From a virus (lineage: Duplodnaviria; Caudoviricetes): DNA of 64,000 bases. The position numbers and the translations under genes are program-made. Below the pieces are notes generated by a model. That model saw nothing but the letters and a program-made list of their open reading frames with translations. It ran no database searches and had not been told where the DNA came from. Positions 15,817 through 62,704 of the stretch are shown piece by piece (the stretch's first letter is position 1; each line of letters begins with the position of its first letter). Location of the stretch: IMG/VR virus record IMGVR_UViG_3300034061_003631, positions 11-64,010 of that record. One strand, given 5' to 3'.

Positions 15817-17250
15817 TTAACCTTGGGTCATACCGTGGAGGTTATTGACTTGAGTTAGGCGGTAGTATTGGTTGATACCTTGAGTGAGAGCTTCACCGTC
15901 TGGTGTGGTTCCGTTTAGGACGTATGGGTTAGCAACTACGCCGTAACGGGTCTTGAATCCAATTCTTGGTTGGAAAGTATTTGGATCTACTGCACGGACC
16001 ATTTGGAGAGGAACGTATGGGCAGTAGAAGAGACCAGCGTCATATGGAGACTCGCCCTTATAACCAGCGCAGAAGAAGTTTACGCCGAGTGGGGTGTAAG
16101 GATCGATATATACGCGGACTTTTCCATTTAGCAATCCAGCAAAGGTGCTTTGGGTATCATCAACATTGAGTTGTGGTGCGATGCCGGGGCTGAGGCTCAT
16201 GAAGCCAGACATGGCTAGAGCAGCAGCAGTATCGCTGTCAACGATGACGAAGTTACCTTTACCACGACGGGTTTCCTTGGCAATTGCGTTGCATTCACGT
16301 TCAATTTGGAAAGTGAGGCCACGGAATCTTTCGGCAGACCAACGACCGTCAGAGTCTTGGTTAAGATCGTATATACCAGCAGAGGTGATATCGTTTTGGA
16401 CAGTTCCTCTACGAGCAACATAATAGATGGTTCTGACGATTTCGCGGTTGATTTCAGCAAGAATTTCTGTGCTGAGGAGGTTTGCGAGTTCGGCTTCTGC
16501 ATCTAGACCGTGAACAGCCTTGAGGTCTTGTGCCAATTCAATTGTGTAGTTGCTGCTTAGAGCGCGAGTACGAGCTTGGACGGCAACGCGGTCAATTGAG
16601 AAGGCCATTTGGTTAAATTGGCTGTAAGGATTAGAAGTTCCGCTACCCAAACCTTCACCGTTAGCAGTCAACATACCACGGAATGAGCTGAATTGAGCTG
16701 CAGTGGCGTTGTTTCTGAGGTAAACTGGGTTGTTAAATGCGCTGTTTCCGCATGAACCGCAGAGACCAAAGAATCCGCAGATACCCTTCTCGGTTGAACC
16801 GAGTGTATAACCAGAACCACCGAATCCAGGAATTGCTTCTTGGAACATGGCTTCGGTATATGAAGTGGTATTGCCGTATTGGAATCCACCATAGTTAGCG
16901 CGCATTGCAAAGATGAGTCCGGTTGGGGCGGTCATTGGTTGGACGCCGCAAACATCATAGGCCATCAAGTTTGGCATTGCACGACGAACTAAGCTGATGA
17001 GAACTGGGTCATAACCTGCAACTCCACCGTTATTGGTGAAGCTGGTTGGCATGCCCAAGTTTGCAGAGTTCATCAAACCATCGGTTTCGGTGAGGTACTG
17101 AGAACGAAGAGATTGTTCTTGGTTCTCAAGAAGGACAGCTGTGACCTTCTTACGGTAGTCATCAGAGATGTTTGGAAGAGCGCCGTGATCAAGCACGGGA
17201 TTCCACTTCTCTGTTAAAATATCATATGGGGTATTGTCTTGAAAGTTCAT
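15817..17250 (-). CDS. gp23: Major capsid protein gp23
   Basis: DPVLISLVRRAMPNLMAYDVCGVQPMTAPTGLIFAMR, ELAQDLKAVHGLDAE, FQPRIGFKTRYG. Confidence 0.99.
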   Translation of the reverse strand: MNFQDNTPYDILTEKWNPVLDHGALPNISDDYRKKVTAVLLENQEQSLRSQYLTETDGLMNSANLGMPTSFTNNGGVAGYDPVLISLVRRAMPNLMAYDVCGVQPMTAPTGLIFAMRANYGGFQYGNTTSYTEAMFQEAIPGFGGSGYTLGSTEKGICGFFGLCGSCGNSAFNNPVYLRNNATAAQFSSFRGMLTANGEGLGSGTSNPYSQFNQMAFSIDRVAVQARTRALSSNYTIELAQDLKAVHGLDAEAELANLLSTEILAEINREIVRTIYYVARRGTVQNDITSAGIYDLNQDSDGRWSAERFRGLTFQIERECNAIAKETRRGKGNFVIVDSDTAAALAMSGFMSLSPGIAPQLNVDDTQSTFAGLLNGKVRVYIDPYTPLGVNFFCAGYKGESPYDAGLFYCPYVPLQMVRAVDPNTFQPRIGFKTRYGVVANPYVLNGTTPDGEALTQGINQYYRLTQVNNLHGMTQG

Positions 17251-18376: not shown

Positions 18377-19120
18377 TTAATATATTCCTTTTCTTTTGCC
18401 TCTCTCAAGATAGCCACCTGCTCCAACAGCAGCGGCAGCTGTCTGAGAACCAATATTTGCCATATGTGATAGTGCAGATTGAGCACCAAATGCTTTTGTA
18501 GCCCAATCTAGTGGATCTATTCCCATCATGGCCAATTGTGGTAACTTAGCAGAAACTTCTATACCAAGTCTACCAAATCTTCCTGTTGGAACGCCAGCCA
18601 TACCAGCTACAGTTGGGCTTAATCCCAACATACTTGCAATTGCTGTGGTTCCTCTTATGGCTGCAGAAGCAGCTGGTCCCGCAGCACCCAAAGAAGCAAC
18701 TAATCCTGTCGTGGGAGCCATACCACCCAAATATCTTGCAGCCAATTCAGTTTTAATTAATTGTTTTGCACCAGACTTAATTAATGGATCTGGAACCCAA
18801 CCAAGATAATGATTTAAAACAGAGTCAGCATTGGCTGCAACATTTCCCCAATATCCCTGTGATACAATATCAGAGCCAGATGGCATTGCTGTTCCGGGAG
18901 CAGCGGGTGTTCCTGCCCAAGGAGTTGACATGGATGCTCTTGAAGAACCACCTGTGATACCTACACCAGAGCCACCACCACCAGCAGTAATTCTAGAAGG
19001 TCCGGAAGAACTTAAAGTTCTTGCTGGTTTGCCAACTAAACCATATCTTCTTTTTACTCTGGGTGGTTTACTAGCAGCTTCTAATAAAATTTTATTGGTG
19101 TGGGGATCAAATAATGGCAT
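18377..19120 (-). CDS. Hypothetical Gly/Ala-rich protein between gp21 and gp22
   Basis: 247-aa ORF abutting the gp21 stop; KILLE near the N-terminus. Confidence 0.65.
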   Translation of the reverse strand: MPLFDPHTNKILLEAASKPPRVKRRYGLVGKPARTLSSSGPSRITAGGGGSGVGITGGSSRASMSTPWAGTPAAPGTAMPSGSDIVSQGYWGNVAANADSVLNHYLGWVPDPLIKSGAKQLIKTELAARYLGGMAPTTGLVASLGAAGPAASAAIRGTTAIASMLGLSPTVAGMAGVPTGRFGRLGIEVSAKLPQLAMMGIDPLDWATKAFGAQSALSHMANIGSQTAAAAVGAGGYLERGKRKGIY

Positions 19121-19764
19121 TAGATATTCCTAAAATATTGTTCAAAAACTTTTACAATGTTTTTTTCTAGGTTTTTTGAACCAGATTTTTTAATAATTTT
19201 TCTTGCAGAATCTAATTGTCGTTCAGACCAAATACCATTTTCAAAAATCCATTCACGGCCTTCCATTATTCCGTTGACAAAAGCATTTGGTGCAGAAGGG
19301 TCAGCTACAATATCGATTGCAGCTAACATAAAATCTTCTTGAACTTCTTGATAACCATTTTTTGATTTTAGCGAACCCATACCTCTTGTAGATACACCAA
19401 GTTGGGCACCCTCATCAATAAGGTTTTTTACAATTTTGCCCATTGGCGTATCAAGAACTTTAGCCTTACCGTAGACATTTCTGCCATCTTCATATAGTTC
19501 TTTTACAATGTGCGAGACTCTATCAAGATTTACAGTAGGACCTGTTGGGTGGTTTAATTCACCCATTGCACGACCTTTAGCAACATATTCGTTAATATAC
19601 CTTTTGCATTCTTTTAATAAGGTATTTTTTGGATAGATTCTTCCATTGCGGTTTTTAACGTCAGATTGCATAAATACACCTTCGATAAAATAATGTTTAT
19701 CGCCATTTCCGACATTTTCTTTGACGTATTTAATATCTTCAGTTAATTCTGTAATTAGTTTCAT
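19120..19764 (-). CDS. gp21: Prohead protease gp21
   Basis: KNRNGRIYP, GELNHP, GVSTRGMGSL, DIVADPSAPNAFV. Confidence 0.97.
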   Translation of the reverse strand: MKLITELTEDIKYVKENVGNGDKHYFIEGVFMQSDVKNRNGRIYPKNTLLKECKRYINEYVAKGRAMGELNHPTGPTVNLDRVSHIVKELYEDGRNVYGKAKVLDTPMGKIVKNLIDEGAQLGVSTRGMGSLKSKNGYQEVQEDFMLAAIDIVADPSAPNAFVNGIMEGREWIFENGIWSERQLDSARKIIKKSGSKNLEKNIVKVFEQYFRNI

Positions 19765-47291: not shown

Positions 47292-47852
47292 ATGAACATC
47301 TTTGTACTTGACAATGACGCCGCTACGTCCGCTCGCATGATGTGTGATAAGCATGTAGTTAAAATGATTCTTGAATCCTGTCAGTTGCTTTCAACCGCAC
47401 ATCATGTGCTTGACGGGGATTCCTTGTACGTAAATACAGGTAAGCGCAAGTACAAAACTTATATTTGTACTAAGAAAAATATTTGCAAAGCAACTATGGT
47501 AAATCATCCATGTACTATATGGACGCGTGAAACAAGATCAAATTATATTTGGCTTTGGAGACATGCATATGCTTTGTGCAAAGAATATACCCGCCGATAT
47601 AATAAAGTTCATGCAATGGAACAAATGCTTATGGATGAACTTTATGATCCGCCATTGAATATTGCTAAAGGTAAAATTACACCATTTGCACAGGCGATGC
47701 CAGATCAGTATAAAGATGAAAATGCTGTGGTTGCTTATCGCAAATACTATATCAACGAGAAGGTGCGTTTTGCGAAGTGGAACTACTCTGAGGAACCTGA
47801 GTGGTTTTCAAAAAAAGTTTTTTCTCTGTCCGAAGAGTACCTTCCCTTTTAA
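47292..47852 (+). CDS. denV: Pyrimidine dimer DNA glycosylase / endonuclease V family
   Basis: MNIFVLD, CDKHVVKMILESCQLLSTAH, NHPCTIW, AQAMPD, AYRKYY. Confidence 0.85.
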   Translation: MNIFVLDNDAATSARMMCDKHVVKMILESCQLLSTAHHVLDGDSLYVNTGKRKYKTYICTKKNICKATMVNHPCTIWTRETRSNYIWLWRHAYALCKEYTRRYNKVHAMEQMLMDELYDPPLNIAKGKITPFAQAMPDQYKDENAVVAYRKYYINEKVRFAKWNYSEEPEWFSKKVFSLSEEYLPF

Positions 47853-48666: not shown

Positions 48667-51600
48667 ATGACTAAAAAAGGTTGCTGCTGTAAAGAAGAAA
48701 ATTCAAATGTAAAACATTATATTGCTGTAAGATGTTTCGAATATGAAACAGAGTTTTACGAGCAACCAAAAATACATAATGTTTATGATTCTTTTCCAAG
48801 TAATTCTAGAATTTTTGGTCTTGGCGATGAACCTGATTTTCCTTATAGAGTAACCGGATTAGATTCTGGAAACAGTTTACTTGTAATAGAAAAAGATCCA
48901 TCAAGAAAAATTAAATTTATGTTAAAAGGTGGTGGCGGTGGCGCACCATTTGATTCATTTGGCGGCAATGCTGCTTATATTGATTTTAATGTAATTCCAT
49001 TTAGTGAAAGTAAATTAAATTCAATGTCACTATTTGTTGGTGCTGGTGGCACCGGTGGTCCGCATTTTGATTTTAGAAATACCACACCATTATATGGTGG
49101 TGGCCCTGGGTTTGGATTTGCTGGATGGGGAGGAGGTGCGGCTGCTTATGGTGATAGCGTTCAATCTTTACAAGCAGGTGGCCAATATGTTGTTGGTTCT
49201 GGTGGCGGTGCGGGAGCAGATATAGATACAAATACCAGATATGGTGGACATGGTGGCGTTTCGGATGGAGAGGCTGGTGATGGTCTGTTTGGCGGAGGTT
49301 CAGCATCAAGCACTGCGCCTGGATTGGGCGGCGGTGCTGGAGGATTTGGGGGCGGATTTAGAATTGGTGGCCTTGGATTTAGATTCAGTCCTCCACCATC
49401 GTTTCCAGTTAGTGTAGTTGGTGGAGGTGGAGGCTCAGGGGTTTTTGGTGGCGGTGGTGGAGGTTCAAATAGTTCTGGGGGCGGAGGAGCTTCTACCGTA
49501 GCTGATATATTTTCTAATAAACCAATTGACAACGGATTCGATGGGACATTCAGAGGTCCCGGTAGTCGCTGTAGTCCGTTTTTTAGTAAAACAATGGATG
49601 CTGGTTTGGGTGCTAATAGACCTGGAAGATTTATAGAAAATTTAGATACTGTATATACTTCATTGTATAACGGAGGAAACGCCCAAGCAGCAGAATATCA
49701 CAGAACAAGGTGGTGTCCTTGTTTTGAAAGCCAAGTATCAAATATTGATAATTCTACTGGTTATTTTTCAAATGGGTTAAACTATATTTGTTTAACAGAA
49801 GGACAATATAATCTTATAATTGCCCAGACACTTTCTTTACCAGACTATAATAATATCTTTGCTGCGGGAGCAGGTTATGTAAAAACTTCTTTTGTTTTAA
49901 ACGGAGCAAGGTATATTTTATTGCCATGGGAAGAGGATATTTATGGTGATCCAACTGCAAATCATTATTATTGCAGCGTAGGATGTGAAAATGATTATAT
50001 TGCTAATGGAATACCAACAGATGTAAAATGGTACGTTTCAACACAATATAATTTTGCAAATTATTCAGATTCAAGAAATTTTTTCAAAAATCTATACTTA
50101 TCATATGGTATGGATCTATCCTCAGTAACAAGTTGCTGTGATATTTTTATCGGTGAAAGAATTTGTTTTCCAGAAAATTCATCAAACTGTTCAAATTCTG
50201 TAGATCAAGATGGAAATGTATATGGATGTTATTGTCAAAATGTAGAAACACCACCAAAGTATAAATCTATATGCCGTTCACAAGTTTCTACAGATAGTCC
50301 ATTTATAGCGGTAGATCCCGATTCCCAATTTTATTATCTCTGCATTCCAGCATTTGGTTGGAGCAGATTTGGATCAGAAACCGTAAATGGGCTTTTCAAT
50401 TATTCTGATGGCATTAATGATGAAAATAAAATAAATTTGGGAAGCGATTTACAATATTTTAGTGATCCACCATCATTAGAAATTGAAGAGTTGAGACAAT
50501 TGCTTTGTGAGCAGACGCAAACTGGACCTGGTGGCGAATGCAATAAAAATCCAGATCAAGATTGTGTATGCAGAGTAATTGTAAGCCGACCATATGAAGA
50601 ACAGGATCCCGAAGGAATAAACGCTCCTATTACATTTACTCACACAGGTGGTATAGTTTGTTCAAGAGATCTATATGGATCAGGTCCAAATTCTTGTGAA
50701 ACATGTCCAGAAGAAACAGCCCAACCACTTCCTCTTGATGATAATACTTTTAGTTTTCAAAAATGCACACAACCTTCTATATGTGAAATAACTGGTTGCT
50801 ATACAATAGATCCAAGTATACCAAATTGTGGACCAACAAATCCACAACAATGTGGTGAGTGTACAGATCCTTGTTCTGGCGATCCCATTCTTTTGACAAA
50901 AAAAGCCTTCGCCACATTTAAAAAATTGTTTTCATTCTTTGAAACAAATTTATATAGAGCAGGCAATCTACTTTTAAATCCAAATACATCAACAGTAAGC
51001 AAAATACAAGTACCGCCATTAAATCCTTGCGATGTAATTCCCGGTGAATGTCAATTTGCAGGTACTTTTATTGGTTATAAATCAAAAATTGAAAGAAATA
51101 GTTGCCCACCTGATAATTGGATTCAGTCACAAACTTGTAAAGATTGTGGATGTATAAAAGAACAAACACAAACTGTATTGCGCTGCAGTGCAACCGATTT
51201 AATAAAAGAAGAAAAATCTTGGGAAACCTGGATGTGTGTTTTGATACAAGAATCTACAGCCAATAATGGTGAAGATTATTATGAAGGCACAGCAATGGAA
51301 ATTACTTTAAATCCTTGCTTGTTTGCCGGTTTGACACCTGTAGAAGCTTTAGCAAAAGCAACACAACTTATAAAATTAGAAGAAAAATCTATACAAACTT
51401 CTTTATGTGGTGAAGAACAAATAACAATAAATGGGTATCGTTTAACTGCATGTCTTCTCTGCTTGGACTTAGCTAGTTCTTCAGCCTCTGATGCAGCTGC
51501 ATATATAAATGCCTGTGTGGGTGGATTTGCTTATGCAACTGTTTTAGATGATTTGGCCTGGTTTGGTGAAAGAAGAATGAATTGTAATGTATGCGAAGAA

Positions 51601-52281
51601 TTTAAAAAGAGACCCGGTGATATTTTTGAAATAGAATATTCTCTTTACAATGGTGGTGTAAAAGCTACAATTAAATTTAAATCAAAAAAATACGAAGCAT
51701 GCGTTCTTGTAAAAAGCAACCCAGTCTGCGATACCCAATTGGGAGGCAGTGCTGATGACTGCTATAATTTTGTATTGTCTGAAACAAAAGGCAATATATT
51801 TGTTCAATATAAAAGTAACGAAGCTGTGAGTTATCCTGAGTGGGCAAATGGGACTCGTTGGGAATTTACAACAATTTCTGGTGATGGAGAAAACCCAAAT
51901 TTTCAAGCTTGCGCACCCTTTAATGAACAAATAGGTCCGCAAGACTGTATATTATACAAAAGATCTGATTGTGTTTATAGAAAACCAGATCTTGAAGGGT
52001 ATACAGGAAAATGTTGTACAATTAACACAAATTGTTCGGACAATGAAATAGAGTGCACAAGCATTAATAGCATTGGAGATTATTGTACTTTTTGTGAAAA
52101 TCAACAATGCACAAGTTCTGGTAGTTGTTCTACAAATGGAGACGATGCTTGCTGCAATTTAGATCAACCACCAGATTGCCAATATCCTCCATGCACTCCT
52201 TTTCAAGGTTGCACTATAATTTCTTCACCAATTCCAAGTGATGTTTGCACTACACAAATAGGATCATTGTTTATTTTTTAA
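48667..52281 (+). CDS. Large Gly-rich / Cys-rich putative virion fibre or appendage protein
   Basis: TATAAATA upstream; starts MTKKGCCC; poly-Gly domain at about aa 90-290; dozens of Cys in the remainder. Confidence 0.7.
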   Translation: MTKKGCCCKEENSNVKHYIAVRCFEYETEFYEQPKIHNVYDSFPSNSRIFGLGDEPDFPYRVTGLDSGNSLLVIEKDPSRKIKFMLKGGGGGAPFDSFGGNAAYIDFNVIPFSESKLNSMSLFVGAGGTGGPHFDFRNTTPLYGGGPGFGFAGWGGGAAAYGDSVQSLQAGGQYVVGSGGGAGADIDTNTRYGGHGGVSDGEAGDGLFGGGSASSTAPGLGGGAGGFGGGFRIGGLGFRFSPPPSFPVSVVGGGGGSGVFGGGGGGSNSSGGGGASTVADIFSNKPIDNGFDGTFRGPGSRCSPFFSKTMDAGLGANRPGRFIENLDTVYTSLYNGGNAQAAEYHRTRWCPCFESQVSNIDNSTGYFSNGLNYICLTEGQYNLIIAQTLSLPDYNNIFAAGAGYVKTSFVLNGARYILLPWEEDIYGDPTANHYYCSVGCENDYIANGIPTDVKWYVSTQYNFANYSDSRNFFKNLYLSYGMDLSSVTSCCDIFIGERICFPENSSNCSNSVDQDGNVYGCYCQNVETPPKYKSICRSQVSTDSPFIAVDPDSQFYYLCIPAFGWSRFGSETVNGLFNYSDGINDENKINLGSDLQYFSDPPSLEIEELRQLLCEQTQTGPGGECNKNPDQDCVCRVIVSRPYEEQDPEGINAPITFTHTGGIVCSRDLYGSGPNSCETCPEETAQPLPLDDNTFSFQKCTQPSICEITGCYTIDPSIPNCGPTNPQQCGECTDPCSGDPILLTKKAFATFKKLFSFFETNLYRAGNLLLNPNTSTVSKIQVPPLNPCDVIPGECQFAGTFIGYKSKIERNSCPPDNWIQSQTCKDCGCIKEQTQTVLRCSATDLIKEEKSWETWMCVLIQESTANNGEDYYEGTAMEITLNPCLFAGLTPVEALAKATQLIKLEEKSIQTSLCGEEQITINGYRLTACLLCLDLASSSASDAAAYINACVGGFAYATVLDDLAWFGERRMNCNVCEEFKKRPGDIFEIEYSLYNGGVKATIKFKSKKYEACVLVKSNPVCDTQLGGSADDCYNFVLSETKGNIFVQYKSNEAVSYPEWANGTRWEFTTISGDGENPNFQACAPFNEQIGPQDCILYKRSDCVYRKPDLEGYTGKCCTINTNCSDNEIECTSINSIGDYCTFCENQQCTSSGSCSTNGDDACCNLDQPPDCQYPPCTPFQGCTIISSPIPSDVCTTQIGSLFIF

Positions 52282-52299: not shown

Positions 52300-53028
52300 A
52301 TGAGCTATCAAAATAATACAACTTTAGTTTTACCAAAAGTAGTTACTTGCAAAGAAAAGGGAATCAATCTTCCAGTTATAAATTGTGAACATTGGGAAGC
52401 AAAAGATAATTGCAATCCTGTTTGCAAATTAAATCTTGTAGACTCTCCAGATTATAAAAAATGCAAAGATTGCAAAGAAAGAAAACCAATTAAAAGTGAA
52501 ACTATGGAAAATTATAAAAGAAAAGAGTTTGTTAATATTAATGAAAATGTAAGACAAACTTTAGAAGCACAATCAAAAAAATTGCAAGAAATACAAGAGA
52601 AGTTTGCAAAGCAAAAAAAAGAACAAGAAGAAAAAATATTAAATGAAAAATCATTTTTAGATAAAGCAGTTTCATATCTAAAAGCAGAATCATCACAAGC
52701 CACACAGGGCAAAATATCAAATAGCAACTTTGAAAAGAGAAAAGAAATATGTATGAGTTGCCCCTTTAAAGTAAACGATGTTCTATTAAAAAATGGAACA
52801 ACGGCTCACGATTCTGTTGGATGGTGTAAGGGTGGATGCGGCTGTAGTGTTGGTTCCGAAAGAGCCGCCTTGTCAACCAAACTTTACATGCCAACGTTAT
52901 CTTGTCCAAAAGGAAAATTTGGTGTCGAAAAGGGAGCTGGTTTTGAAATTTCTGATGCCGTAGATTCCGCAAAAGGAATTTTAACTTCAGCAATTAGTAT
53001 TTTTAAGAAACCTCAGACAGATAAATAA
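52300..53028 (+). CDS. Cys-rich hypothetical protein
   Basis: CEHW...C...CKDC; RKEICMSCP...WCKGGCGC...LSCPKGKF. Confidence 0.7.
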   Translation: MSYQNNTTLVLPKVVTCKEKGINLPVINCEHWEAKDNCNPVCKLNLVDSPDYKKCKDCKERKPIKSETMENYKRKEFVNINENVRQTLEAQSKKLQEIQEKFAKQKKEQEEKILNEKSFLDKAVSYLKAESSQATQGKISNSNFEKRKEICMSCPFKVNDVLLKNGTTAHDSVGWCKGGCGCSVGSERAALSTKLYMPTLSCPKGKFGVEKGAGFEISDAVDSAKGILTSAISIFKKPQTDK

Positions 53029-53032: not shown

Positions 53033-53560
53033 ATGCTCAAATTTAAAGACTTTTTGTTAAATGAAGATCTTGGTATCGGCCCAGAAGGAACAGCAAACAA
53101 TCCTTCTATTAAAAATTATTTGGATTCGCTAAGAAAAGAAAAAAAAGATCTAGTTCAACAAAAAAAATTAACTGTAAATAACCCAGAAGAAAAAGAAAGA
53201 TTGTCTGATTTACTTAATCAAAAACAACAAGAAATTTATCAAACTCAAATTTTAAGTAATCCACAAACTTCTACTACTACTCCAAGTTTGCCAACACCAC
53301 AGCTCAGTACTTCTTTAGGGTCACCAGCTGGAAAGGAAAGTGCTTTTGATAAACTTATAAAAGGCAAAACAGTTTCAACTATTGGATCATCGTCACCAAC
53401 ACCATCTCTTGCTTCTCCAGCTTTGAGTACAGCCACACCATCTCCTGAAAGCTCAATTTATTCAGGATATAAAGTTTTTAACAATTTAATAAGCAGCATA
53501 ACAAACCCTCAATTAGATATTGAAGTTTTAGGCAAAACTTCTAAAAACATAAGATTATAA
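53033..53560 (+). CDS. Late protein with capsid-targeting-like N-terminus and Ser/Thr/Pro-rich tail
   Basis: MLKFKDFLLNE; GATAAATA just upstream. Confidence 0.65.
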   Translation: MLKFKDFLLNEDLGIGPEGTANNPSIKNYLDSLRKEKKDLVQQKKLTVNNPEEKERLSDLLNQKQQEIYQTQILSNPQTSTTTPSLPTPQLSTSLGSPAGKESAFDKLIKGKTVSTIGSSSPTPSLASPALSTATPSPESSIYSGYKVFNNLISSITNPQLDIEVLGKTSKNIRL

Positions 53561-53568
53561 ATATTTTT

Positions 53569-54030
53569 ATGAATTACCTTCTAAATTATTATAAAAATAT
53601 TTGTGAAAAATACCAACAAAAAATTATTATTTTACAAAATTATTTAAACGAGGTTGCTGAAAGTGGTATAAATGTTGCTGGCGGTGGTTTGGCCCAAGAA
53701 CCAATTCCTCAAGAAGGGGCACCAATCGGTATACCGGATATGCAAGGACCACGTGATCCATCCATTCCACCAAGTCCAATTGATTATTTTTATTGGTGTG
53801 AGGACGCTGGTTGTGATATCAATACTCCACCAGGTATAGGATTTTACGATAAAGATGGTGATGGTAAAATAAGTCCTGAAGAACGCCAAGAGTGGAATAT
53901 TGATACAGAGAGATGGCATCAACAAAAAAATTTATATACAAGACATTTTAAAGAGCATTCAAAATGGAAATCTAGCCAAAAAAGAAGAAGAGTTTCTTCT
54001 ATGGCAACAGATAGTCAATACTACTCATAA
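53569..54030 (+). CDS. Leader-cargo array member (YYKN leader)
   Basis: MNYLLNYYKNICEKYQQKIIILQNYLNE; TATAAATA upstream; DKDGDGKISPEE EF-hand-like loop. Confidence 0.75.
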   Translation: MNYLLNYYKNICEKYQQKIIILQNYLNEVAESGINVAGGGLAQEPIPQEGAPIGIPDMQGPRDPSIPPSPIDYFYWCEDAGCDINTPPGIGFYDKDGDGKISPEERQEWNIDTERWHQQKNLYTRHFKEHSKWKSSQKRRRVSSMATDSQYYS

Positions 54031-54048
54031 CAAATAAAATAAAATCAA

Positions 54049-54858
54049 ATGATAAATCCATTCAACGATCAATCAAATATTTTTATAAACCCATATGACA
54101 ATGCAATAAAAAAATTGCAAGAACAAAATCTTTTTAAATTCGAAGAAATATATAAAAAAAGATGTGATTTTTTAAATAAAAAAAATATAAAACTTAAAAA
54201 ATATTTAGAAGAAGCAACTTCGTCATTAAACGATAGAGAATTTGGGATTAATTATGATTCCGCAGTTAACAATACTAGCTCTTCTGCTAATTTAATGATG
54301 CCTAGCCCACCACCACCAAGTTGGTGGGGTGGAAAAAATAGAATTTCATGGAATTTCGAAAATATGCCAGATTGGTATAGAAAAATGTTTGGTAATACTA
54401 ATGATTTCTCCCCAGCACCTGCAGATCGCCCCAAAGTAGGCCCAAATGAACGTGGAGTAGATGTAGAAAAAGCACCCCGTGGCCCGGGATCAAATTTTAA
54501 TCATTATCCTGGAGCAGGACAGAAAAGCAGTGGATTTTATAACGGCTGGTACAAGCCACCAAAAGAATTTCCTGTATATAGCCATCAATCATCAGTGCAC
54601 ACTATATTTAACTTAGACCGTTCAAGATATGTAACTACTTTGGATGGACAAGACTTACCACAGGGTGTATTTGCAGATACTCAACCACCATATTGGCTTT
54701 GGACTTTAGGCGCACCAACACCACAATATCCACAAGGTGTACCATATTGGTTGGATATGAATGGAGGCGCTGAGAATATGGGAGTTTGGCAGATGGCAAG
54801 TCAAGGTAGTCCGGGATATTTGAATCCTTGGGGAATATTTTTACAAAATCCGAACTAA
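54049..54858 (+). CDS. Leader-cargo array member; cargo paralogous to 54868
   Basis: EEIYKKRCDFLNKKNIKLKKYLEE then ATSSLNDREFGINYDSAVN...PPPPSWWGGKNR. Confidence 0.75.
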   Translation: MINPFNDQSNIFINPYDNAIKKLQEQNLFKFEEIYKKRCDFLNKKNIKLKKYLEEATSSLNDREFGINYDSAVNNTSSSANLMMPSPPPPSWWGGKNRISWNFENMPDWYRKMFGNTNDFSPAPADRPKVGPNERGVDVEKAPRGPGSNFNHYPGAGQKSSGFYNGWYKPPKEFPVYSHQSSVHTIFNLDRSRYVTTLDGQDLPQGVFADTQPPYWLWTLGAPTPQYPQGVPYWLDMNGGAENMGVWQMASQGSPGYLNPWGIFLQNPN

Positions 54859-54861
54859 AAT

Positions 54862-55637
54862 ACTAAAATGCTTTTTTATCAATCCGACATTAATAATACT
54901 ATTTCAAAAATTTTTATTAAAAAATATTTAAAAGAAGCATATTCGTCAATAAATGATAGAGAATTTGGAATTAATTATGATTCCGCAGTCAACAGTACTA
55001 GCTCTTCTGCTAATTTAATGATGCCTAACCCACCACCACCAAGTTGGTGGGGTGGAAAAAATAGACTTTCACAGTGGTTCGCTGGTGAACGAATGCCAGA
55101 TTGGTATAGAAGAATGTTTGGTTATGGTGATCCCCCAGCAGATCGCCCTAGATTAGGCTCAAGTGAACGTGGAGTAGAGAGAGCACCCCGTGGCCCGGGA
55201 TCAAATTTTAGTCATAACCCTCTTATATTTCGTAAACCGGGTGGACAATATAATGGCTACTGGTTGCCACCAAAAGAATTTCCTGTGTATAGCCACCAAG
55301 CAGAAGCACACACTTTATTGGGCTTAGACCGATCAAGATTTTTAACTACTTGGGAAGGACAAGCATTACCACAAGGTGTATTTGTAGATAGTCATGGACC
55401 ACCACATTTATTCTGGACTTTAGGGGCACCAACACCAGATTACCCAGAAGGTGTACCATATTGGATAGATTATGCTGGAGAATTTACTCCTGATAATCCA
55501 GGAGTATGGCGCATGATAAATCCGGAGCTACCGGGAAATCCTTGGGGAATTCAACCACCAGATTATAACCCCAACTAAATATACTAACTAAAATGCTTTT
55601 TTATCAATCCGACATTAATAATACTATTTCAAAAATT
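54862..55637 (+). repeat. 51-nt identical direct repeat at 54862-54912 and 55587-55637
   Basis: ACTAAAATGCTTTTTTATCAATCCGACATTAATAATACTATTTCAAAAATT in both. Confidence 0.9.
54868..55578 (+). CDS. Leader-cargo array member (MLFYQSD leader)
   Basis: MLFYQSDINNTISKIFIKKYLKE then AYSSINDREFGINYDSAVN. Confidence 0.75.
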   Translation: MLFYQSDINNTISKIFIKKYLKEAYSSINDREFGINYDSAVNSTSSSANLMMPNPPPPSWWGGKNRLSQWFAGERMPDWYRRMFGYGDPPADRPRLGSSERGVERAPRGPGSNFSHNPLIFRKPGGQYNGYWLPPKEFPVYSHQAEAHTLLGLDRSRFLTTWEGQALPQGVFVDSHGPPHLFWTLGAPTPDYPEGVPYWIDYAGEFTPDNPGVWRMINPELPGNPWGIQPPDYNPN

Positions 55638-56252
55638 CTTCTTGAAAAATTATTAGATGATACACCAGATCCAAGACCTCTAAAACCAAAAACCCCTTGG
55701 ATGGTGGAAGGGGATTTTGTGTTTTATGGTGATCCGCCACCACCTCCTCCTTCTGGTGTCGGACAAGCACTTGAACTTATAAATGATTATGGTATAGGTT
55801 TTCATCCATACGACTGGTTTAATAATACAAATAATCAAAATACGACACAGGGCGAAATGCATCCAGCCATACAGTGGTTACTTGGTACAGTGGGTACTGC
55901 TGAAGGACCACTTTTATTGAGAGTATTGCAAGGATTGGCACCAATTCCTCTTGAATGGATTCCATATTTAGCGGCTTTGGGAGTATTGGTTGTTGGTGTC
56001 GGAGGTGCTATGTATATAACTGCTGAATCTGGACAAATAATTTTAAATAATTTACCAGGTTTGCAAGAAGTAGGCTCAGGTAATGCAACTGCTTTTCAAA
56101 GAATTGATGCACCTGTATACAATGATTCCATCTACCAAAACAGCGGTATCGATCCTTTGACGGGATTGCCTTGGAATGTGATTCCACCACCTCCCCCATC
56201 TTCTTCCGGTAATGATTCTTCTTCAGGAGATGGTATAGCAGTAATACCTTAA
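55593..56252 (+). CDS. Leader-cargo array member (MLFYQSD leader) with hydrophobic segment
   Basis: MLFYQSDINNTISKILLE; WIPYLAALGVLVVGVGGAMYI. Confidence 0.75.
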   Translation: MLFYQSDINNTISKILLEKLLDDTPDPRPLKPKTPWMVEGDFVFYGDPPPPPPSGVGQALELINDYGIGFHPYDWFNNTNNQNTTQGEMHPAIQWLLGTVGTAEGPLLLRVLQGLAPIPLEWIPYLAALGVLVVGVGGAMYITAESGQIILNNLPGLQEVGSGNATAFQRIDAPVYNDSIYQNSGIDPLTGLPWNVIPPPPPSSSGNDSSSGDGIAVIP

Positions 56253-56285
56253 AGTTTTTATATATTTTGTTTTATAAATACTTTC

Positions 56286-56990
56286 ATGGATTATTTGACA
56301 AAATATTATAAAAATTTAGCTGAAGAGCTTCAACAAAAATGTAACAAACTTTATTTAACTTTAAATGAAGTTGCTTCACCAGTTCAATTAATGCCAGGGC
56401 AGGGTCCTGGTACTCTTGAAGGCGATCCAAATTATAGATTTGTTGGTGGTGTGGAATCCGCAGGTGATAGCGTAAGACCACAATTAATGCAATGGAACAA
56501 CAATGCACAAGTTTGGAAAACTAATTTTTATAATAGTGGTTACGCAAATGCTCCTTGGAATAATTGGGCAAGTTGGATAAATGCACTATACCAATATTGG
56601 AATAATAATGCATTTTGGAATGCAGGAATGCAAGATTTTATGGTTGGGTTGTTTGGTGATGGCTACAATTATCAATTTTTGCCAAATGGCGATATTCTTT
56701 TTACAGAAGAAATGAAACAAATTGCATATAATTGCATACAATCAATGGTTCAAGCAGGCAGTCAATCGCCAAACCAAAATGCTTCTAACGCTGCAGCACA
56801 ATCTGTATTTAATTATTTCCAAGAACAATATGGAATAAAAACATACCCGTGGTACAACGGAGAGTTTGCTCCATTCTTTACAAACTATTATCTACCAGGA
56901 GCAACTTCATTCCCACCCACACCACCGTGGCAATGGAATCCCGGTATGGGACTTCCTTTTGCAAATGCACCAACCGTTCCTGCGCCATAA
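56286..56990 (+). CDS. Leader-cargo array member (MDYLT leader)
   Basis: MDYLTKYYKNLAEELQQKCNKLYLTLNE; TATAAATA upstream. Confidence 0.78.
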   Translation: MDYLTKYYKNLAEELQQKCNKLYLTLNEVASPVQLMPGQGPGTLEGDPNYRFVGGVESAGDSVRPQLMQWNNNAQVWKTNFYNSGYANAPWNNWASWINALYQYWNNNAFWNAGMQDFMVGLFGDGYNYQFLPNGDILFTEEMKQIAYNCIQSMVQAGSQSPNQNASNAAAQSVFNYFQEQYGIKTYPWYNGEFAPFFTNYYLPGATSFPPTPPWQWNPGMGLPFANAPTVPAP

Positions 56991-57001
56991 TATATAACAA
57001 C

Positions 57002-57460
57002 ATGAAATACGAAGAATATTATTACAAAAATCTTTGTGAAAAGTATCAAAAAAGAATTGATATTCTTGAAAGATATCTTTCTGAGGCTGGACTAAAGAAA
57101 GCTTTAAAGACCGGAAAGCCAGAACTTCTTGCAAAAGAAGGTATAAAGCAAGGCGAAAGAAGAGAACGGCTTCTTTCAACTGCCACGGAAATGGGTCAAA
57201 GAGCTTCAGATAGTGCTCGCAAATATGGTCCAATGAGCAAACAAGTAGGTGCTGCTGGTCTACAGCAACAAGCTGCTCTTTCAAGCGCACAACAAATTGG
57301 ACAAAATATCGAAGATATTGATATACAACTGGCTTCAGAAGATCCAGAGCTAAGAAAGCGTTCAAGCGGAATGTATATGAGACAATCAATGCTGGGACCA
57401 GATGTATTCCCAGAAAGACCAATGCAAGATTATCCTCATGTTGGTTCGGCACAATATTAA
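57002..57460 (+). CDS. Leader-cargo array member
   Basis: Start taken at ATG 57002: MKYEEYYYKNLCEKYQKRIDILERYLSE. Confidence 0.75.
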   Translation: MKYEEYYYKNLCEKYQKRIDILERYLSEAGLKKALKTGKPELLAKEGIKQGERRERLLSTATEMGQRASDSARKYGPMSKQVGAAGLQQQAALSSAQQIGQNIEDIDIQLASEDPELRKRSSGMYMRQSMLGPDVFPERPMQDYPHVGSAQY

Positions 57461-57468
57461 ATAAATTT

Positions 57469-58014
57469 ATGGACTACCTAACAAATCATTACAAAAATTT
57501 ATCGGAACAACTGCAAAACAAAATAAACATTTTGCAAAAAGTTTTATTAGAATCTGATATGCCACCAGTTGGTCCAGACATAGAGGGTATTGGTGATACT
57601 GCACCAATAACATCCAGAAAAGAATTTCAAGATAATGGTTTGTGGATCACACCAACTAACTGGCAAGGTCTTTATAATCAATGGCAAAAATTAAGAAACG
57701 GACCAGTTCCAAACTGGTTCCTTGCCGAATATTGGGGAGGGCTTCAATCAAATGGTGGGACTTGGGGATCAGTAGCAGATGCTTGGGACAATTTCTGCGC
57801 ACAATTGTTGGGAGCAATAAGCAGAGCTGGTCAATACAATAATCCAGAAATATACTGGGACATTCAAAGCCAGTGGCAGTATTATACAGCCCAAGCAAAT
57901 AATGGTCAACCACTACCATTCCCCGTACGACACGGTGGACGCTACACTCCACAAATTGGCATGCACCAAGTAGGCGGAAGAATAAATTATATTGAACCAC
58001 ATCCAAATATGTGA
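57469..58014 (+). CDS. Leader-cargo array member (MDYLT leader)
   Basis: MDYLTNHYKNLSEQLQNKINILQKVLLE. Confidence 0.78.
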   Translation: MDYLTNHYKNLSEQLQNKINILQKVLLESDMPPVGPDIEGIGDTAPITSRKEFQDNGLWITPTNWQGLYNQWQKLRNGPVPNWFLAEYWGGLQSNGGTWGSVADAWDNFCAQLLGAISRAGQYNNPEIYWDIQSQWQYYTAQANNGQPLPFPVRHGGRYTPQIGMHQVGGRINYIEPHPNM

Positions 58015-58046
58015 TTATTATTCAATAATTCAAAAACAAAAAATAA

Positions 58047-58074
58047 GGGTCCCCAAAAGGGACCCAAATTTTTT
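58047..58074 (+). terminator. Intrinsic terminator
   Basis: GGGTCCC-CAAAA-GGGACCC followed by AAATTTTTT. Confidence 0.7.
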
Positions 58075-58096
58075 GTTAAAATTTTTATAACAATAT

Positions 58097-58633
58097 ATCT
58101 ATCTAAATATTCTTATGGATTATTTGACAAACTATTACAAAAATCTCTGCGAGCAACTTCAAAATAAACTAAATTATCTGGAACAAATGATCGCAGAGGC
58201 CAGACGGGGAACCGTCATGGTAGATGTAGATGACATCGAACGCGACGAGGGAGGTGACAGTATCATCGTCGGCAGACTCGCATCAGGCAAGGGTGCCAAA
58301 ACCGAAAGAACGATCACCTTCTACCCACAAAAAGAGCATGACATGGATGACTACCGCAATGCAGCCAAAATCGGCGCAGAGCCAATGGAAATTCGTTCAA
58401 ACGAGATCATGCACGAACCAAGGGAAAGAGGACACAATGTACGTGGCGCAGGCGCAAAGAGAGTAAAGAAAGAAATCGCACAGCACGGCGCAGAACTCAA
58501 GAAGCCAATGAGCGAACGCGGCGAAATCAGCTTCGACGCAAGAAACGCCCGTCGCCAAGCAAACAGATAATTTTTATACGAATAAATCTATCTAAATATT
58601 CTCATGGATTATTTGACAAACTATTACAAAAAT
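58097..58633 (+). repeat. 48-nt direct repeat (late promoter plus leader start) at 58097-58144 and 58586-58633
   Basis: ATCTATCTAAATATTCTYATGGATTATTTGACAAACTATTACAAAAAT, one mismatch between copies. Confidence 0.9.
58115..58570 (+). CDS. Leader-cargo array member (MDYLT leader)
   Basis: MDYLTNYYKNLCEQLQNKLNYLEQMIAE; cargo DNA more GC-rich than the leader. Confidence 0.78.
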   Translation: MDYLTNYYKNLCEQLQNKLNYLEQMIAEARRGTVMVDVDDIERDEGGDSIIVGRLASGKGAKTERTITFYPQKEHDMDDYRNAAKIGAEPMEIRSNEIMHEPRERGHNVRGAGAKRVKKEIAQHGAELKKPMSERGEISFDARNARRQANR

Positions 58634-59005
58634 TTATGTGAACAATTACAACATAAAGTGAATAAGCTTTCTTTTACAAGAAAATTGTTAAATGAAAGTG
58701 ATACCCCCACCCAATTTCCAGTTCAAGATAAACCAGGCGGTCCTTTGTATGTGCCCGGGAATCCTTATTGGGAACCAGCTCGGCCACCAATTCGGCCATC
58801 AGTTTGGCCACAAGATTGGCGACATCCTGGCGGAATAATTGATCATGAATACCCGACTCTGCCTACTCTGCCTCCTTACCCTGTCTGGGAACATGATAGT
58901 GACCCCCCTCCAGGTTGGGATGGATGGTGGCCCGATGCCCCACCCGGTGATCCAAGAAGTATTCCACCTGATACTTGGCCTCGTAAACCCCCCGCTGTAG
59001 GATAA
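58604..59005 (+). CDS. Leader-cargo array member (MDYLT leader), Pro/Trp-rich cargo
   Basis: MDYLTNYYKNLCEQLQHKVNKLSFTRKLLNE. Confidence 0.78.
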   Translation: MDYLTNYYKNLCEQLQHKVNKLSFTRKLLNESDTPTQFPVQDKPGGPLYVPGNPYWEPARPPIRPSVWPQDWRHPGGIIDHEYPTLPTLPPYPVWEHDSDPPPGWDGWWPDAPPGDPRSIPPDTWPRKPPAVG

Positions 59006-59034
59006 CATAATACTTTAAAATTTTTCGAATAAAC

Positions 59035-59068
59035 TTTTGGGCTCCTTCCGGGGGCCCAAAATTTTTTT
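59035..59068 (+). terminator. Intrinsic terminator closing the array
   Basis: TTTTGGGCTCC-TTCC-GGGGGCCCAAAA followed by T7. Confidence 0.75.
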
Positions 59069-59269
59069 AGGGCATACCATGTATTTTAAGGTTTGGGGTG
59101 GAGGGGGGTGGCCAAAAAATTTTTAGACCATCAAGGATATTTGAAAAAATTTGAGAAAATTTGAGAGGGACGGGGAGCTAGCCGTTTTTATCGGACGCCG
59201 CCAGATGGGACCCAAATTACTACTCGGACACCGCTAAAATAACTAAAATAATTTTTTCAAATAACTTTG

Positions 59270-59304
59270 AAAACAAAGATGCCCCCGCCTTCGGCGGGGG
59301 CATC
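59270..59304 (-). terminator. Intrinsic terminator of the minus-strand early gene
   Basis: GATGCCCCCGC-CTTCG-GCGGGGGCATC, followed by TTTGTTTT on the minus strand. Confidence 0.75.
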
Positions 59305-59317
59305 TGGTGGGCTGGGG

Positions 59318-59461
59318 TTACTGGCCCCAGTACCAGTCCCAGTAGGTGTCCTCCTCTGGGGCCTCGGCGTATTCCCTTTCTTCGTCCGGATTCGCGTTGC
59401 GCTTGGCGAGACGAATCTCAACGGGGCGGGTGGTTTCTTCGATGTGGGTGGTGCTGTCCAT
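59318..59461 (-). CDS. Small leaderless early protein (47 aa)
   Basis: TTGACA-N17-TATCAT-N6-ATG; MDSTTHIEETTRPVEIRL...WDWYWGQ. Confidence 0.65.
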   Translation of the reverse strand: MDSTTHIEETTRPVEIRLAKRNANPDEEREYAEAPEEDTYWDWYWGQ

Positions 59462-59467
59462 ACGCGT

Positions 59468-59496
59468 ATGATACCAGATACCTGCGTGTATGTCAA
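59468..59496 (-). promoter_or_regulatory. Early sigma70-type promoter
   Basis: TTGACA-N17-TATCAT. Confidence 0.8.
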
Positions 59497-59558
59497 CCCT
59501 CAAAGTAAAACACCACCCAAATTTTTGGGTGGTGTGGCTAAGGGGTAGGCGGTGGGCT

Positions 59559-59885
59559 TTACATCTCGCCCCATCCCGCGCTCGCTAGCCAGTCGTTGTC
59601 TGCGTCCCAGTCCTCGCGGCTCATCCGGCTAGCCGCATCGCTGAACGCTTGGTTGTCGGCATCGCGCTCCGCGTCATCCTGCGCCTTGCGCTCCTCGCCG
59701 TACCCGGCGATCTCCCATCGGTTCTCACGGGAACCCGTGGGCTTGGCCTCGCGCTTCGCCTCGCGCTCCCGCTCCTCCTGCTCCTCGCAGGAGGGGCACG
59801 GGCGATCATCGTAGGCGTACTCCGGGCGGTGGCACTGGCAGGGGAAGTGTTCGTGTTCGTGGTTGTGGGTGGTGCTGTTGTGCAT
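59559..59885 (-). CDS. Leaderless early protein with His/Cys metal-binding N-terminus
   Basis: MHNSTTHNHEHEHFPCQCH...RPCPSC; ATG 6 nt after the -10 box. Confidence 0.7.
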   Translation of the reverse strand: MHNSTTHNHEHEHFPCQCHRPEYAYDDRPCPSCEEQEEREREAKREAKPTGSRENRWEIAGYGEERKAQDDAERDADNQAFSDAASRMSREDWDADNDWLASAGWGEM

Positions 59886-59891
59886 GGCGGT

Positions 59892-59920
59892 ATGATACCA
59901 TGCCTCGCCTTCCTTGTCAA
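59892..59920 (-). promoter_or_regulatory. Early sigma70-type promoter
   Basis: TTGACA-N17-TATCAT. Confidence 0.8.
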
Positions 59921-59957
59921 GCCCTTCGTAGAATATTTTTTTCTTTGTTCCTACCCC

Positions 59958-59986
59958 TTGACAGCGTAGGCGGAGTCTGGTACAAT
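59958..59986 (+). promoter_or_regulatory. Early sigma70-type promoter
   Basis: TTGACA-N17-TACAAT. Confidence 0.85.
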
Positions 59987-59992
59987 CCACCC

Positions 59993-60187
59993 ATGAGCAC
60001 CACTCTCCGCATCGCTTCCATCGTCTCCGTTCTCTGCGTCATCCTCTCCGCGTTCCTTGCCTTCGGGCTTGCCTACAACGGCGACTACATCCGCGCCACG
60101 GTCTGCCTTGCCTTCTGCGGCTTTGGTGTTCTGTTGTGGCGGCTCACCGACATGGCGGACGAAGAGTACTACCGGGGTATGAAATAA
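59993..60187 (+). CDS. Leaderless small membrane protein (two predicted TM segments)
   Basis: MSTTLRIASIVSVLCVILSAFLAFGLAY...TVCLAFCGFGVLLW. Confidence 0.7.
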   Translation: MSTTLRIASIVSVLCVILSAFLAFGLAYNGDYIRATVCLAFCGFGVLLWRLTDMADEEYYRGMK

Positions 60188-60339
60188 CTGGGTGGTGCCA
60201 GTAACAGCCGAAGAGGATTCGTTCCCTGCCCCGATTCGTTCGGGGCTAGGTTGTTTTAAGCTACTATCAGCGTGGGAGGGCCACGCTGATAGTTGTTACC
60301 GGACGCGAAGAAATATTAGAATATTCTCGCCGCTGGGGG

Positions 60340-60368
60340 TTGACTGGACGGGCGGCGTCTGGTACAAT
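60340..60368 (+). promoter_or_regulatory. Early sigma70-type promoter
   Basis: TTGACT-N17-TACAAT. Confidence 0.85.
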
Positions 60369-60374
60369 TCGGGC

Positions 60375-60938
60375 ATGAACAGCACCACCACCCACCGTTA
60401 CCTCACCGTCCGCAACCGCGCCACCGAATCTTTCATCGGGCTTCTCGCCCAGGCTACGCTCTTCGACCTCCACGCTGCCGAGCGTTGGTACTCCGAGGCG
60501 CAGGGCTTCGCTAACTCGCTGCGCCCGATGACCGGATGGAACATGGAAGTCGCCGCGTCCGTTGTCTCCGCGTTCTCGCCCCGCGTTACTTGGGCGCACA
60601 ACAAGGCAAAGGCGACGCAGTACGCGCAGGGGATCGCCCCGAAGGGTCTTCGCTCCCATGTCGCTGCGGCGGATCGCTGCATCGTGGAAGGCTTCAACGG
60701 TCTGCGCGGTCTGAAGACGAATGCGTTCGCCCGTGCTATCGCGGGTGATCCTAACGCGGTCGTGGTGGATGTGTGGATGTGCCGCGCTGCGGGTCTGTGC
60801 AAGGACGCGCCGAACGCGACCGAGTACCGTGCCATCGCGGACGCGATCACCGCCATCGCGGGTACGCCGACCGTGAACATGGCACCTGCCACGCTTCAGG
60901 CTCTGCTGTGGATCATCGTCCGGGGCAAGGCGGACTAA
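60375..60938 (+). CDS. Leaderless early protein, DUF7178-like (HhH/glycosylase-like fold suspected)
   Basis: RWY...SAFSPRVTWAHN...GLKTNAF...VVVDVWMCRA...LQALLWI. Confidence 0.6.
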   Translation: MNSTTTHRYLTVRNRATESFIGLLAQATLFDLHAAERWYSEAQGFANSLRPMTGWNMEVAASVVSAFSPRVTWAHNKAKATQYAQGIAPKGLRSHVAAADRCIVEGFNGLRGLKTNAFARAIAGDPNAVVVDVWMCRAAGLCKDAPNATEYRAIADAITAIAGTPTVNMAPATLQALLWIIVRGKAD

Positions 60939-61095
60939 GGGCGGAGGCTGGGAAATAACCGAAAAGGATTCGTCCCTGCCCCGATTCGTTCGGGGCTAGG
61001 TTATTATTGGACAACTATCAAATTTGGCTTTAAGCGGCCAAATTTGATAGTAGACGGGACGGACGGATTATTTTTTATTTTTTCCACCCTACCCC

Positions 61096-61124
61096 TTGAC
61101 AGGACGCCACCTGCGCGGTACAAT
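61096..61124 (+). promoter_or_regulatory. Early sigma70-type promoter
   Basis: TTGACA-N17-TACAAT. Confidence 0.85.
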
Positions 61125-61130
61125 ACGCGC

Positions 61131-61406: not shown

Positions 61407-61451
61407 CCAGGAGGGGGAGGAGAGAATAAAAAAAATATTCTCTCCTCCCCC

Positions 61452-61480
61452 TTGACTTTCGCACCCCAAACTGATACAAT
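61452..61480 (+). promoter_or_regulatory. Early sigma70-type promoter
   Basis: TTGACT-N17-TACAAT. Confidence 0.85.
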
Positions 61481-61486
61481 ACCGAC

Positions 61487-62102: not shown

Positions 62103-62108
62103 ACCGCC

Positions 62109-62698: not shown

Positions 62699-62704
62699 CC
62701 GCGC

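Follow-up and report, generated by a model that had tools for sequence, protein, structure and literature searches.

A leader-cargo hybrid gene in an array of a freshwater T4-like phage, most simply explained by one tandem duplication

How does a gene come to carry the leader of one neighbour and the body of the other? This question is raised by three consecutive genes, named here by their start positions 54049, 54868 and 55593, in a 64,000-nucleotide (nt) stretch of viral DNA (the window; positions 11 to 64,010 of IMG/VR record IMGVR_UViG_3300034061_003631), which comes from an uncultured T4-like phage of fresh water and covers part of its genome. They lie in what reads as an array of genes from 53569 to 59005. 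In each of these, a short leader conserved at the N-terminus would be fused to an ORFan cargo that is otherwise unrelated to the others. A sequence-only reading of this DNA had described 54868 as a mosaic of the leader of 55593 and the cargo of 54049, and had taken it as a sign of leader swapping between functionally interchangeable leader types. Our comparisons bear out the mosaic, which most simply goes back to one tandem duplication. Coordinates are collected in Table 1.

The 51 nt at 54862-54912 and 55587-55637 are exactly identical, correct to the base as the sequence-only reading had given them. When up to three mismatches were allowed, the 45-nt coding part of this block was found at two sites in the window and at none in 100 shuffles. 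Likeness to 54049 then begins at the codons for KKYL-x-E (54917 in 54868 and 54194 in 54049), the proposed cleavage site at which that reading had placed the junction, and continues through the stop codon. The proteins of 54868 and 54049 are 67% identical and have in common the motifs quoted there, while the cargo of 55593 is, as claimed, unrelated to either. As a sequence motif only, L-x-E stands at residues 53-55 of 54049 (LEE), 21-23 of 54868 (LKE) and 16-18 of 55593 (LLE); the predicted cleavage contexts, with the cut marked by a slash, are KKYLEE/A, KKYLKE/A and SKILLE/K, respectively. The cargo of 55593 also has a hydrophobic stretch, IPYLAALGVLVVGVGGAMYI, flanked by Pro-rich segments, which could be a membrane-spanning helix.

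The sequence-only reading had itself raised the objection that the duplication might be an artefact, with the hybrid a mis-join made by assembly across the repeat. The 51-nt block is indeed longer than the 31-letter words of Logan contigs; as expected, these contigs end inside it and cannot pair entrances with exits, so that they cannot alone order the genes, whereas the junction and longer assemblies do. Four lake-water runs were compared (X17, X19, X21 and X24), none of them flagged as a possible source of the window. Logan contigs spanning the leader/cargo junction (54883-55025) were found in three of these (X17, X19 and X24), and no junction-spanning piece was among those listed for X21. 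The exact hybrid protein of 236 amino acids (aa) is present on 40 contigs, the longest of 78,425 nt, and its two neighbours are likewise widespread (37 and 41 contigs). Moreover, the three genes have similar depths, and the full-length hybrid occurs in four sequence variants. The region 53500-56400 is present near-complete in 24 lake-water runs. With the junction bridged in three of four runs and the protein on 40 contigs, we regard the hybrid as real and a mis-join as highly improbable. Run X17 also showed loose ends at 54931 and 54940, which could belong to other genes with the same AT-rich junction.

Two head-to-tail units of 726 and 727 nt can be marked out across the three genes. They are alignable from end to end, across the intergenic spacer as well; 581 of the 758 alignment columns are identical, or 83.6% once gapped columns are excluded. 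The repeats keep one register, with spacings of 725 nt for the leader and 711-729 nt for the cargo. Given this shared spacing and the unit-long homology, a single tandem duplication or unequal crossover suffices, and no dedicated leader-swap event is needed; of the proposed leader swapping, the hybrid structure stands and the separate event falls away. We infer that the hybrid arose most simply in one step, a tandem duplication of about 725 bp by unequal crossover between 54049 and 55593. The crossover would have had its ends in the codons just before L-x-E of 54049 and after codon 15-16 of 55593, and the duplicated unit would run from the cargo of 54049 through the spacer to the leader of 55593. 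At the novel junction, an in-frame gene would result that joins the leader of 55593 to the cleavage site and cargo of 54049, giving the order 54049, new junction gene, 55593. With the join upstream of the proposed cleavage site, either leader would give the same mature protein.

Several observations weigh against so simple a history. A single event predicts that leader and cargo copies are of equal age, and the leader block shows 0 differences in 51 nt while the cargo copies of 54868 and 54049 have diverged to 0.32 synonymous substitutions per synonymous site (dS), with a nonsynonymous value (dN) of 0.23 and a dN/dS of 0.71 over 212 codons. Nor is the divergence uniform along the unit, where one block is identical and the remainder averages 83.6%. 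The longest identical runs in the unit alignment are 51, 37, 32 and 29 columns, and a run of at least 51 appeared in just 2 of 20000 column permutations. Cargo identity also drops from 5′ to 3′, from 92% over the first 35 codons, in which the proportion of nonsynonymous differences (pN) is 0.06, to 65% near the end. Given this uneven divergence, extra constraint or later conversion must be added to the single-event model. The block holds only 8.3 synonymous sites, and constraint at the peptide level therefore explains part of its identity.

The identical leader block beside a cargo dS of 0.32, and the rarity of so long a run among permutations, would be accounted for by a two-step history, in which an old duplication of the cargo with its own N-terminus was followed by later conversion of a 5′ end. 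This would be a true leader replacement, in which the 5′ end of 55593 was copied onto the downstream cargo copy, or that of 54868 onto 55593. Continuing exchange between the paralogues points the same way: in strain variant P0050 of 54049, several residues are in the 54868 state (E54K, L60I, N75S, K141R and others), and patches in that state are carried by both P0049 and P0050, which suggests ongoing exchange or gene conversion between the tandem paralogues. However, the two-step history calls for two events where one suffices, and homology that extends past the stop codon and across the spacer as far as the leader, in a register of about 725 nt, is what one duplication predicts. In addition, peptide constraint on leaders, shown below for the common leader type, could explain part of the identity, and zero synonymous changes over 8.3 sites are only mildly unlikely. 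We thus consider two steps somewhat improbable, although they remain a real rival to the single duplication.

Under the single duplication, the manner of the crossover can also be addressed. Guidance by homology was unsupported, and this too counts against an ordinary unequal crossover: the best ungapped match of the parental 55593 patch, 16 of 24 positions, falls at the right place, but several other places in the region reach 15 of 24. Because there is no significant parental homology at that point, we call the crossover illegitimate or microhomology-mediated. We also considered, and rejected, that a start resembling the second leader is hidden in the 5′ region of 54049, since local DNA alignment was no better than with shuffles (152 of 500 reached at least the observed score). 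As to a single-unit ancestral state, no relatives were found beyond this phage population, and all variants seen carry the hybrid.

Does the hybrid mean that leaders can be exchanged freely? On sequence grounds, interchangeable leaders are plausible, with 54868 as the single natural example. In favour, the join lies upstream of the predicted cleavage site, L-x-E and conserved cargo blocks are retained, and the hybrid open reading frame (ORF) is intact in all four full-length variants. Against it stand the dN/dS of 0.71, which gives no proof that both copies are functional, and the fixed pairings among strain variants: the long N-terminus is kept in 4/4 full-length variants of 54049 and the second leader in 5/5 variants of 55593. 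The sequence-only reading had proposed comparison with related genomes for alternative leader-cargo pairings; none occurred among the strain variants, and no other genome was found with cargo C (that of 54868), cargo D or the second leader. Its claim of functional interchangeability thus has one intact hybrid in its favour and these fixed pairs against it.

The searches behind this statement were as follows. The related-locus search gave no relatives of 54868 and 55593 in viral contigs; HMMER with 54868 against 1.84 billion representatives returned its own cluster only, as did a word-based search with 55593. The degenerate pattern MLFYQSDINNTI for the second leader had no match in viral contigs and none in metagenome contigs, in a search from which near-window records may be excluded. 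By profile, the N-terminus of 54049 falls outside the leader type common in the array. Cargos related to each other in the wider family were met only under variants of that common type, and a search with the cargo of 58115 gave two relatives, both with such leaders.

This common leader (type 1) is the more widespread part of the system. Six array genes (53569, 56286, 57002, 57469, 58115 and 58604) start with variants of MDYLTNYYKNLCEQLQ, and a profile built from 64 non-window leaders matched exactly these six ORFs of the window (E 1.6e-18 to 1.4e-8). Searches for the 16-residue start MDYLTNYYKNLCEQLQ gave 44 metagenome proteins (87-252 aa), which beyond it are diverse and for the most part unrelated to one another, as well as 11 IMG/VR loci, where two to four copies often lie in tandem. 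Five leader-bearing IMG/VR records, including the four longest of the 11, had one to four copies each, and a reversed control pattern had none; genes for an S77 protease and a gp23 capsid protein were present in three of the five, the other two being incomplete records. Among 13 genes with an identical 16-aa leader there were ten distinct coding sequences, with 3, 0 and 13 variable sites at first, second and third codon positions, respectively. Because these sites are mostly third and never second positions, selection acts on the leader peptide. A full-text literature search with part of the leader sequence returned no paper, and tblastn of the leader against cultured phages gave one chance-level match (E = 4).

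Two further features of leader-bearing genes were observed. C-terminal tails are alike in differing cargos (57002-57460; P0019, P0022, P0023, P0026, P0038 and P0040), as in ...VGSAQY, ...HVTPSQY and ...PHSSNATY, which hints at a second conserved signal. In L006 (934-1626), L008 (3712-4701) and P0036, the open frame extends beyond the leader ATG on its 5′ side and takes in the promoter-like motif, and gene callers therefore give spurious N-terminal extensions in these three.

What would such leaders do? With a probability of about 50%, we take them to be propeptides that target internal head proteins to the capsid. The array is probably an internal-protein locus. The leaders would bring their cargo into the prohead core, the gp21-type protease would cut them off after L/I-x-E, and the mature cargo would stay in the head and then be ejected with the DNA, as are the T4 internal proteins (IPs). 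Packaging, cleavage and late expression are all deduced here from sequence. The T4 capsid-targeting sequence (CTS) is described as an N-terminal propeptide that targets internal proteins to the prohead core and is then removed, gp21 is described as cleaving after L/I-X-E (PMC9026906), and the CTS is regarded as the route by which T4-like phages load varied proteins into heads (PMC9026906; PMC3012670).

The evidence for this reading lies first in the leader itself. Among 62 non-redundant type-1 leader proteins, 58 carry [LI]xE with the Glu at residues 18-32, and in 30 of these the next residue is Ala; past residue 40, taken as background, such sites numbered 35 in 8052 positions. By position, the Glu stands at residue 13 in all 62 (a site that is part of the pattern by which these proteins were selected), at 17 in 36, at 23 in 30 and at 28 in 28. 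Sequence conservation of the leader ends at the L/I-x-E site. Moreover, the window holds a T4 head module with a gp21 (S77) prohead protease, as expected of a phage with CTS proteins. Its capsid protein has L-T-E at residues 53-55, a motif also found in a relative and aligned with L63-T64-E65 of T4 gp23, which we take to be cut after Glu65; the T4 record notes cleavage of gp23 by gp21 and gives no site.

CTS-like starts were also found in genes flanking arrays, and a start like the second leader in the head module. The N-terminus of 53033, MLKFKDFLLNE, and that of the array neighbour L009:10219, MKRFKEFLEE, resemble MKTYQEFIAE of T4 IPIII and IPII and MKTFKEF of IPI, as taken from the T4 record, in which denV adjoins ipII and ipIII; the denV-like gene of the window lies at 47292-47852. 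Between protease and scaffold, the gene 18377-19120 and its orthologues start with 14-18 residues ending in L-x-E that are similar to the second leader type; read by eye, six positions of the 18-residue forms agree with it, at a place where MAFFT put a gap. This gene (minus strand; also L014:337-1140, L015:2552-3331 and L016:2549-3337) is conserved, Gly/Ser/Pro-rich and without a family match.

Other points weigh against capsid targeting. The leaders are homologous, so that 58 of 62 is one conserved feature and not 58 independent events. Type-1 leaders are 23-28 aa long against the 10 aa of the T4 CTS, and the likeness is confined to a few positions. The array proteins and their neighbours gave nothing useful against Pfam and PHROGs, and no array protein matched families there, T4 IP families included. 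The long N-terminus of 54049 and the second leader of 54868 and 55593 are unmatched by the type-1 profile. A complex prediction of scaffold gp22 (100-348) with a type-1 leader (1-40) scored 0.00, which is neither for nor against binding.

The missing homology to T4 IPs could also mean that the leaders are conserved peptides with another role, namely coiled-coil docking on fibres, whiskers or baseplate, oligomerisation, or action on the host after infection. Heptad-like hydrophobic residues (L4, L11, L15, I/L19 and L22) would suit such a role. Several cargos are Pro/Trp/Gly-rich, and the ESM Atlas, which gave no usable matches, has a model of 54868 (cargo C) with a mean predicted local distance difference test score (pLDDT) of 0.34, unlike the compact T4 IPI. 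However, conservation that ends at L/I-x-E, with Ala or a small residue after it in most, fits the specificity of the protease type that this phage encodes, and the T4 CTS-like starts in genes flanking arrays and the similar N-terminus on a head-module protein also speak for a head function. We consider another role for the leaders unlikely, and capsid targeting remains our preferred reading.

The upstream regions of the leader genes carry signals of their own. TATAAATA, which we take to be the T4 late-promoter consensus, lies about 23-25 nt before the capsid and scaffold genes and exactly 5 nt before 53569 and 56286. Of 26 leader genes, which have 22 distinct upstream regions, 19 (15 of the distinct regions) show TAAATA ending 5 nt before the ATG; among other ORFs of at least 100 aa in the same loci, the count is 16 of 191. 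If the spacing is as in T4, this gap of 5 nt would place the transcript start on the ATG or right beside it, suggesting that leaderless late mRNAs are frequent among these phages. The array genes are probably late genes. Terminator-like hairpins lie before several cassettes and after 57469 and 58604. The TAAATA motif is lacking before 54049, 54868 and 55593, which probably ride on a transcript starting before 53569.

The exact placing of TAAATA and the hairpins before several cassettes could instead mean that the conserved 5′ ends are mainly nucleic-acid signals, either a promoter/start cassette or a recombination cassette like the promoter early stem-loops (PeSLs), with the peptide as a by-product; PMC2839356 describes T4-type phages as shuffling ORFans through promoter-stem-loop cassettes. 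Nevertheless, the distribution of variable sites over codon positions in identical-leader genes, given above, means that the amino acids are kept, and the 7 of 26 leader genes without the motif still keep the peptide. A purely nucleic-acid explanation is therefore very unlikely beside a leader that acts as a peptide.

Table 1. Features of the window and of its source record; positions are those of the window.
Feature	Position	Strand	Remarks
Hybrid gene 54868, 236 aa	54868..55578	+	codons 1-15 identical to 55593; from KKYLKE paralogue of 54049
51-nt block, copy 1	54862..54912	+	6 nt upstream plus first 15 codons of second leader type MLFYQSDINNTISKI
51-nt block, copy 2	55587..55637	+	start of gene 55593
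Crossover zone	54913..54918	+	identity changes from 55593-like to 54049-like; just upstream of KKYLKE codons
Tandem unit 1	54191..54916	+	54049 cargo from KKYL, stop, spacer, 54868 leader
Tandem unit 2	54914..55640	+	54868 cargo, stop, spacer, 55593 leader
Paralogue 54049	54049..54858	+	55-aa N-terminal region ending KKYLEE/A; outside type-1 leader profile
Gene 55593	55593..56252	+	second leader type (MLFYQSDINNTISKILLE/K) and unrelated ORFan cargo with hydrophobic stretch
Type-1 leader gene	53569..54030	+	TATAAATA (53556-53563) ends 5 nt before ATG
Type-1 leader gene	56286..56990	+	TATAAATA (56273-56280) ends 5 nt before ATG
Type-1 leader gene, variant MKYEEYYYKNLCEKYQ	57002..57460	+	cargo related to metagenome proteins with canonical leader
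Type-1 leader gene	57469..58014	+	followed by terminator-like hairpin 58047-58065
Type-1 leader gene	58115..58570	+	
Type-1 leader gene, last of array	58604..59005	+	followed by terminator-like hairpin 59035-59061
Promoter-like sites	53556-53568, 56273-56285, 57460-57468, 58106-58114, 58595-58603		also in L002-L012
Gene directly upstream of array	53033..53560	+	N-terminus MLKFKDFLLNE
denV-like pyrimidine-dimer glycosylase	47292..47852	+	
gp21-type prohead serine protease (Peptidase_S77)	19120..19764	-	E 1.2e-39; proposed processing enzyme
Head-module gene between protease and scaffold	18377..19120	-	N-terminus MPLFDPHTNKILLE/A, ends L-x-E
T4_CASP scaffold	17295-18356		
Major capsid protein gp23	15817..17250	-	
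gp20 portal	20715-22274		
Large terminase	24788-26452		
UvsW	12446-13945		
IMG/VR virus record, source of window	64,010 bases, linear		estimated 31% complete

Among cultured phages, cyanomyophages are closest to the window by capsid protein, at an identity of at most about 55%, and the array has no match to cultured phages at the DNA level. GC content is about 32% until about 59.2 kb and 55-59% thereafter. The jump closely follows 58604, with which the array ends, and a pair of strong hairpins (59035-59061 and 59277-59305), and the ORFs beyond it include a DUF7178/phrog_3842 protein at 60192-60938; the high-GC stretch 59000-64000 may be a chimeric join or foreign DNA. At the other end of the window, a DegT/DnrJ/EryC1-type aminotransferase (1623-2798, minus strand) is part of a minus-strand gene block. 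Upstream of the array, the ORF 48667-52281 encodes 1204 aa, very Gly-rich in the N-terminal third and Cys-rich in the remainder; it matched nothing in Pfam or PHROGs and has TATAAATA 18 nt upstream, and an ORF of 242 aa with a Cys motif (52300-53028) comes after it.

In itself, the hybrid is an ordinary recombination product in a plastic phage region, and the greater interest lies in the leader family as a whole. We tentatively propose that uncultured aquatic T4-like phages share an undescribed, near-invariant capsid-targeting propeptide of 23-28 aa (MDYLTNYYKNLCEQLQ..L-x-E) that loads dozens of unrelated ORFan proteins for injection, expressed from terminator/late-promoter/ATG cassettes that give leaderless mRNAs. 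The boundary at the cleavage site would be the splice point for new leader-cargo pairs, with 54868 as a caught example, and the cargos would make up a large, untapped set of injected proteins for host takeover or anti-defence. Should the leaders be tags for capsid targeting, the T4 design of a CTS with variable internal proteins extends beyond coliphages to abundant phages of lakes and other waters, in a new and much more conserved form of leader. The tag would then be a sequence handle for listing proteins co-injected with the DNA, candidates for anti-defence functions. The hybrid would also show how such a repertoire grows, since one crossover upstream of the cleavage site is enough for a new copy, in frame and correctly tagged, that can then diverge freely. 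The T4 CTS has already been used for packaging foreign proteins, and the present leaders could serve as tags in the same way.

How does this locus compare with known systems? One conserved N-terminal module, many C-terminal modules and tandem arrays are also seen in ribosomally synthesised and post-translationally modified peptides (RiPPs) and in polymorphic toxins. In contrast, the cargos here are of 100-250 aa and not short cores, and they lie in a structural/late region of a phage. Among the proteins scanned, none was recognised as serving modification, export or immunity; a RiPP precursor array was rejected on cargo size and on the lack of recognised modification enzymes among these proteins.

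Giant phages offer a second comparison. According to PMC9026906, phiKZ and SPN3US have many head-internal proteins, paralogues among them, with N-terminal propeptides that are removed after a Glu in a short motif. The likeness lies in propeptide-bearing ejection or inner-body proteins cut by gp21-like proteases. However, these are not T4-core phages, their propeptides are longer, share no single leader and end in another motif, and no homology was found.

PeSLs in hyperplastic regions of T4-type phages let recombination between flanking motifs insert, delete or replace ORFans (PMC2839356; PMC4122927). The cassettes of hairpin, TATAAATA and ATG in the array are similar. In 54868, by contrast, the exchange point falls within the coding sequence, where leader meets cargo; the promoter motif belongs to the late type, and no significant homology patch was found at the crossover.

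The last comparison is with IPI, IPII and IPIII of T4 and their CTS. The array proteins differ from these in having no sequence homology to them, with motif-level likeness in 53033 and L009:10219 only, and in a main leader of 23-28 aa with two or three L-x-E sites, compared with 10 aa in IPII and IPIII and 19 aa in IPI. According to PMC2839356, the elements associated with IPs in T-even phages are based on early promoters, whereas the cassettes here have the late-type TATAAATA 5 nt from the ATG; for the array, packaging and cleavage are predictions from sequence. T-even IPs occupy two plastic loci and come in over 30 variants (PMC2839356); they are described as highly diverse, with only the CTS conserved (PMC3012670). 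The array matches this design in its T4-like phage with a gp21-type protease, in its clustered genes with a denV gene nearby, and in a short, conserved, propeptide-like N-terminal leader that ends in L/I-x-E on unrelated, fast-evolving proteins.

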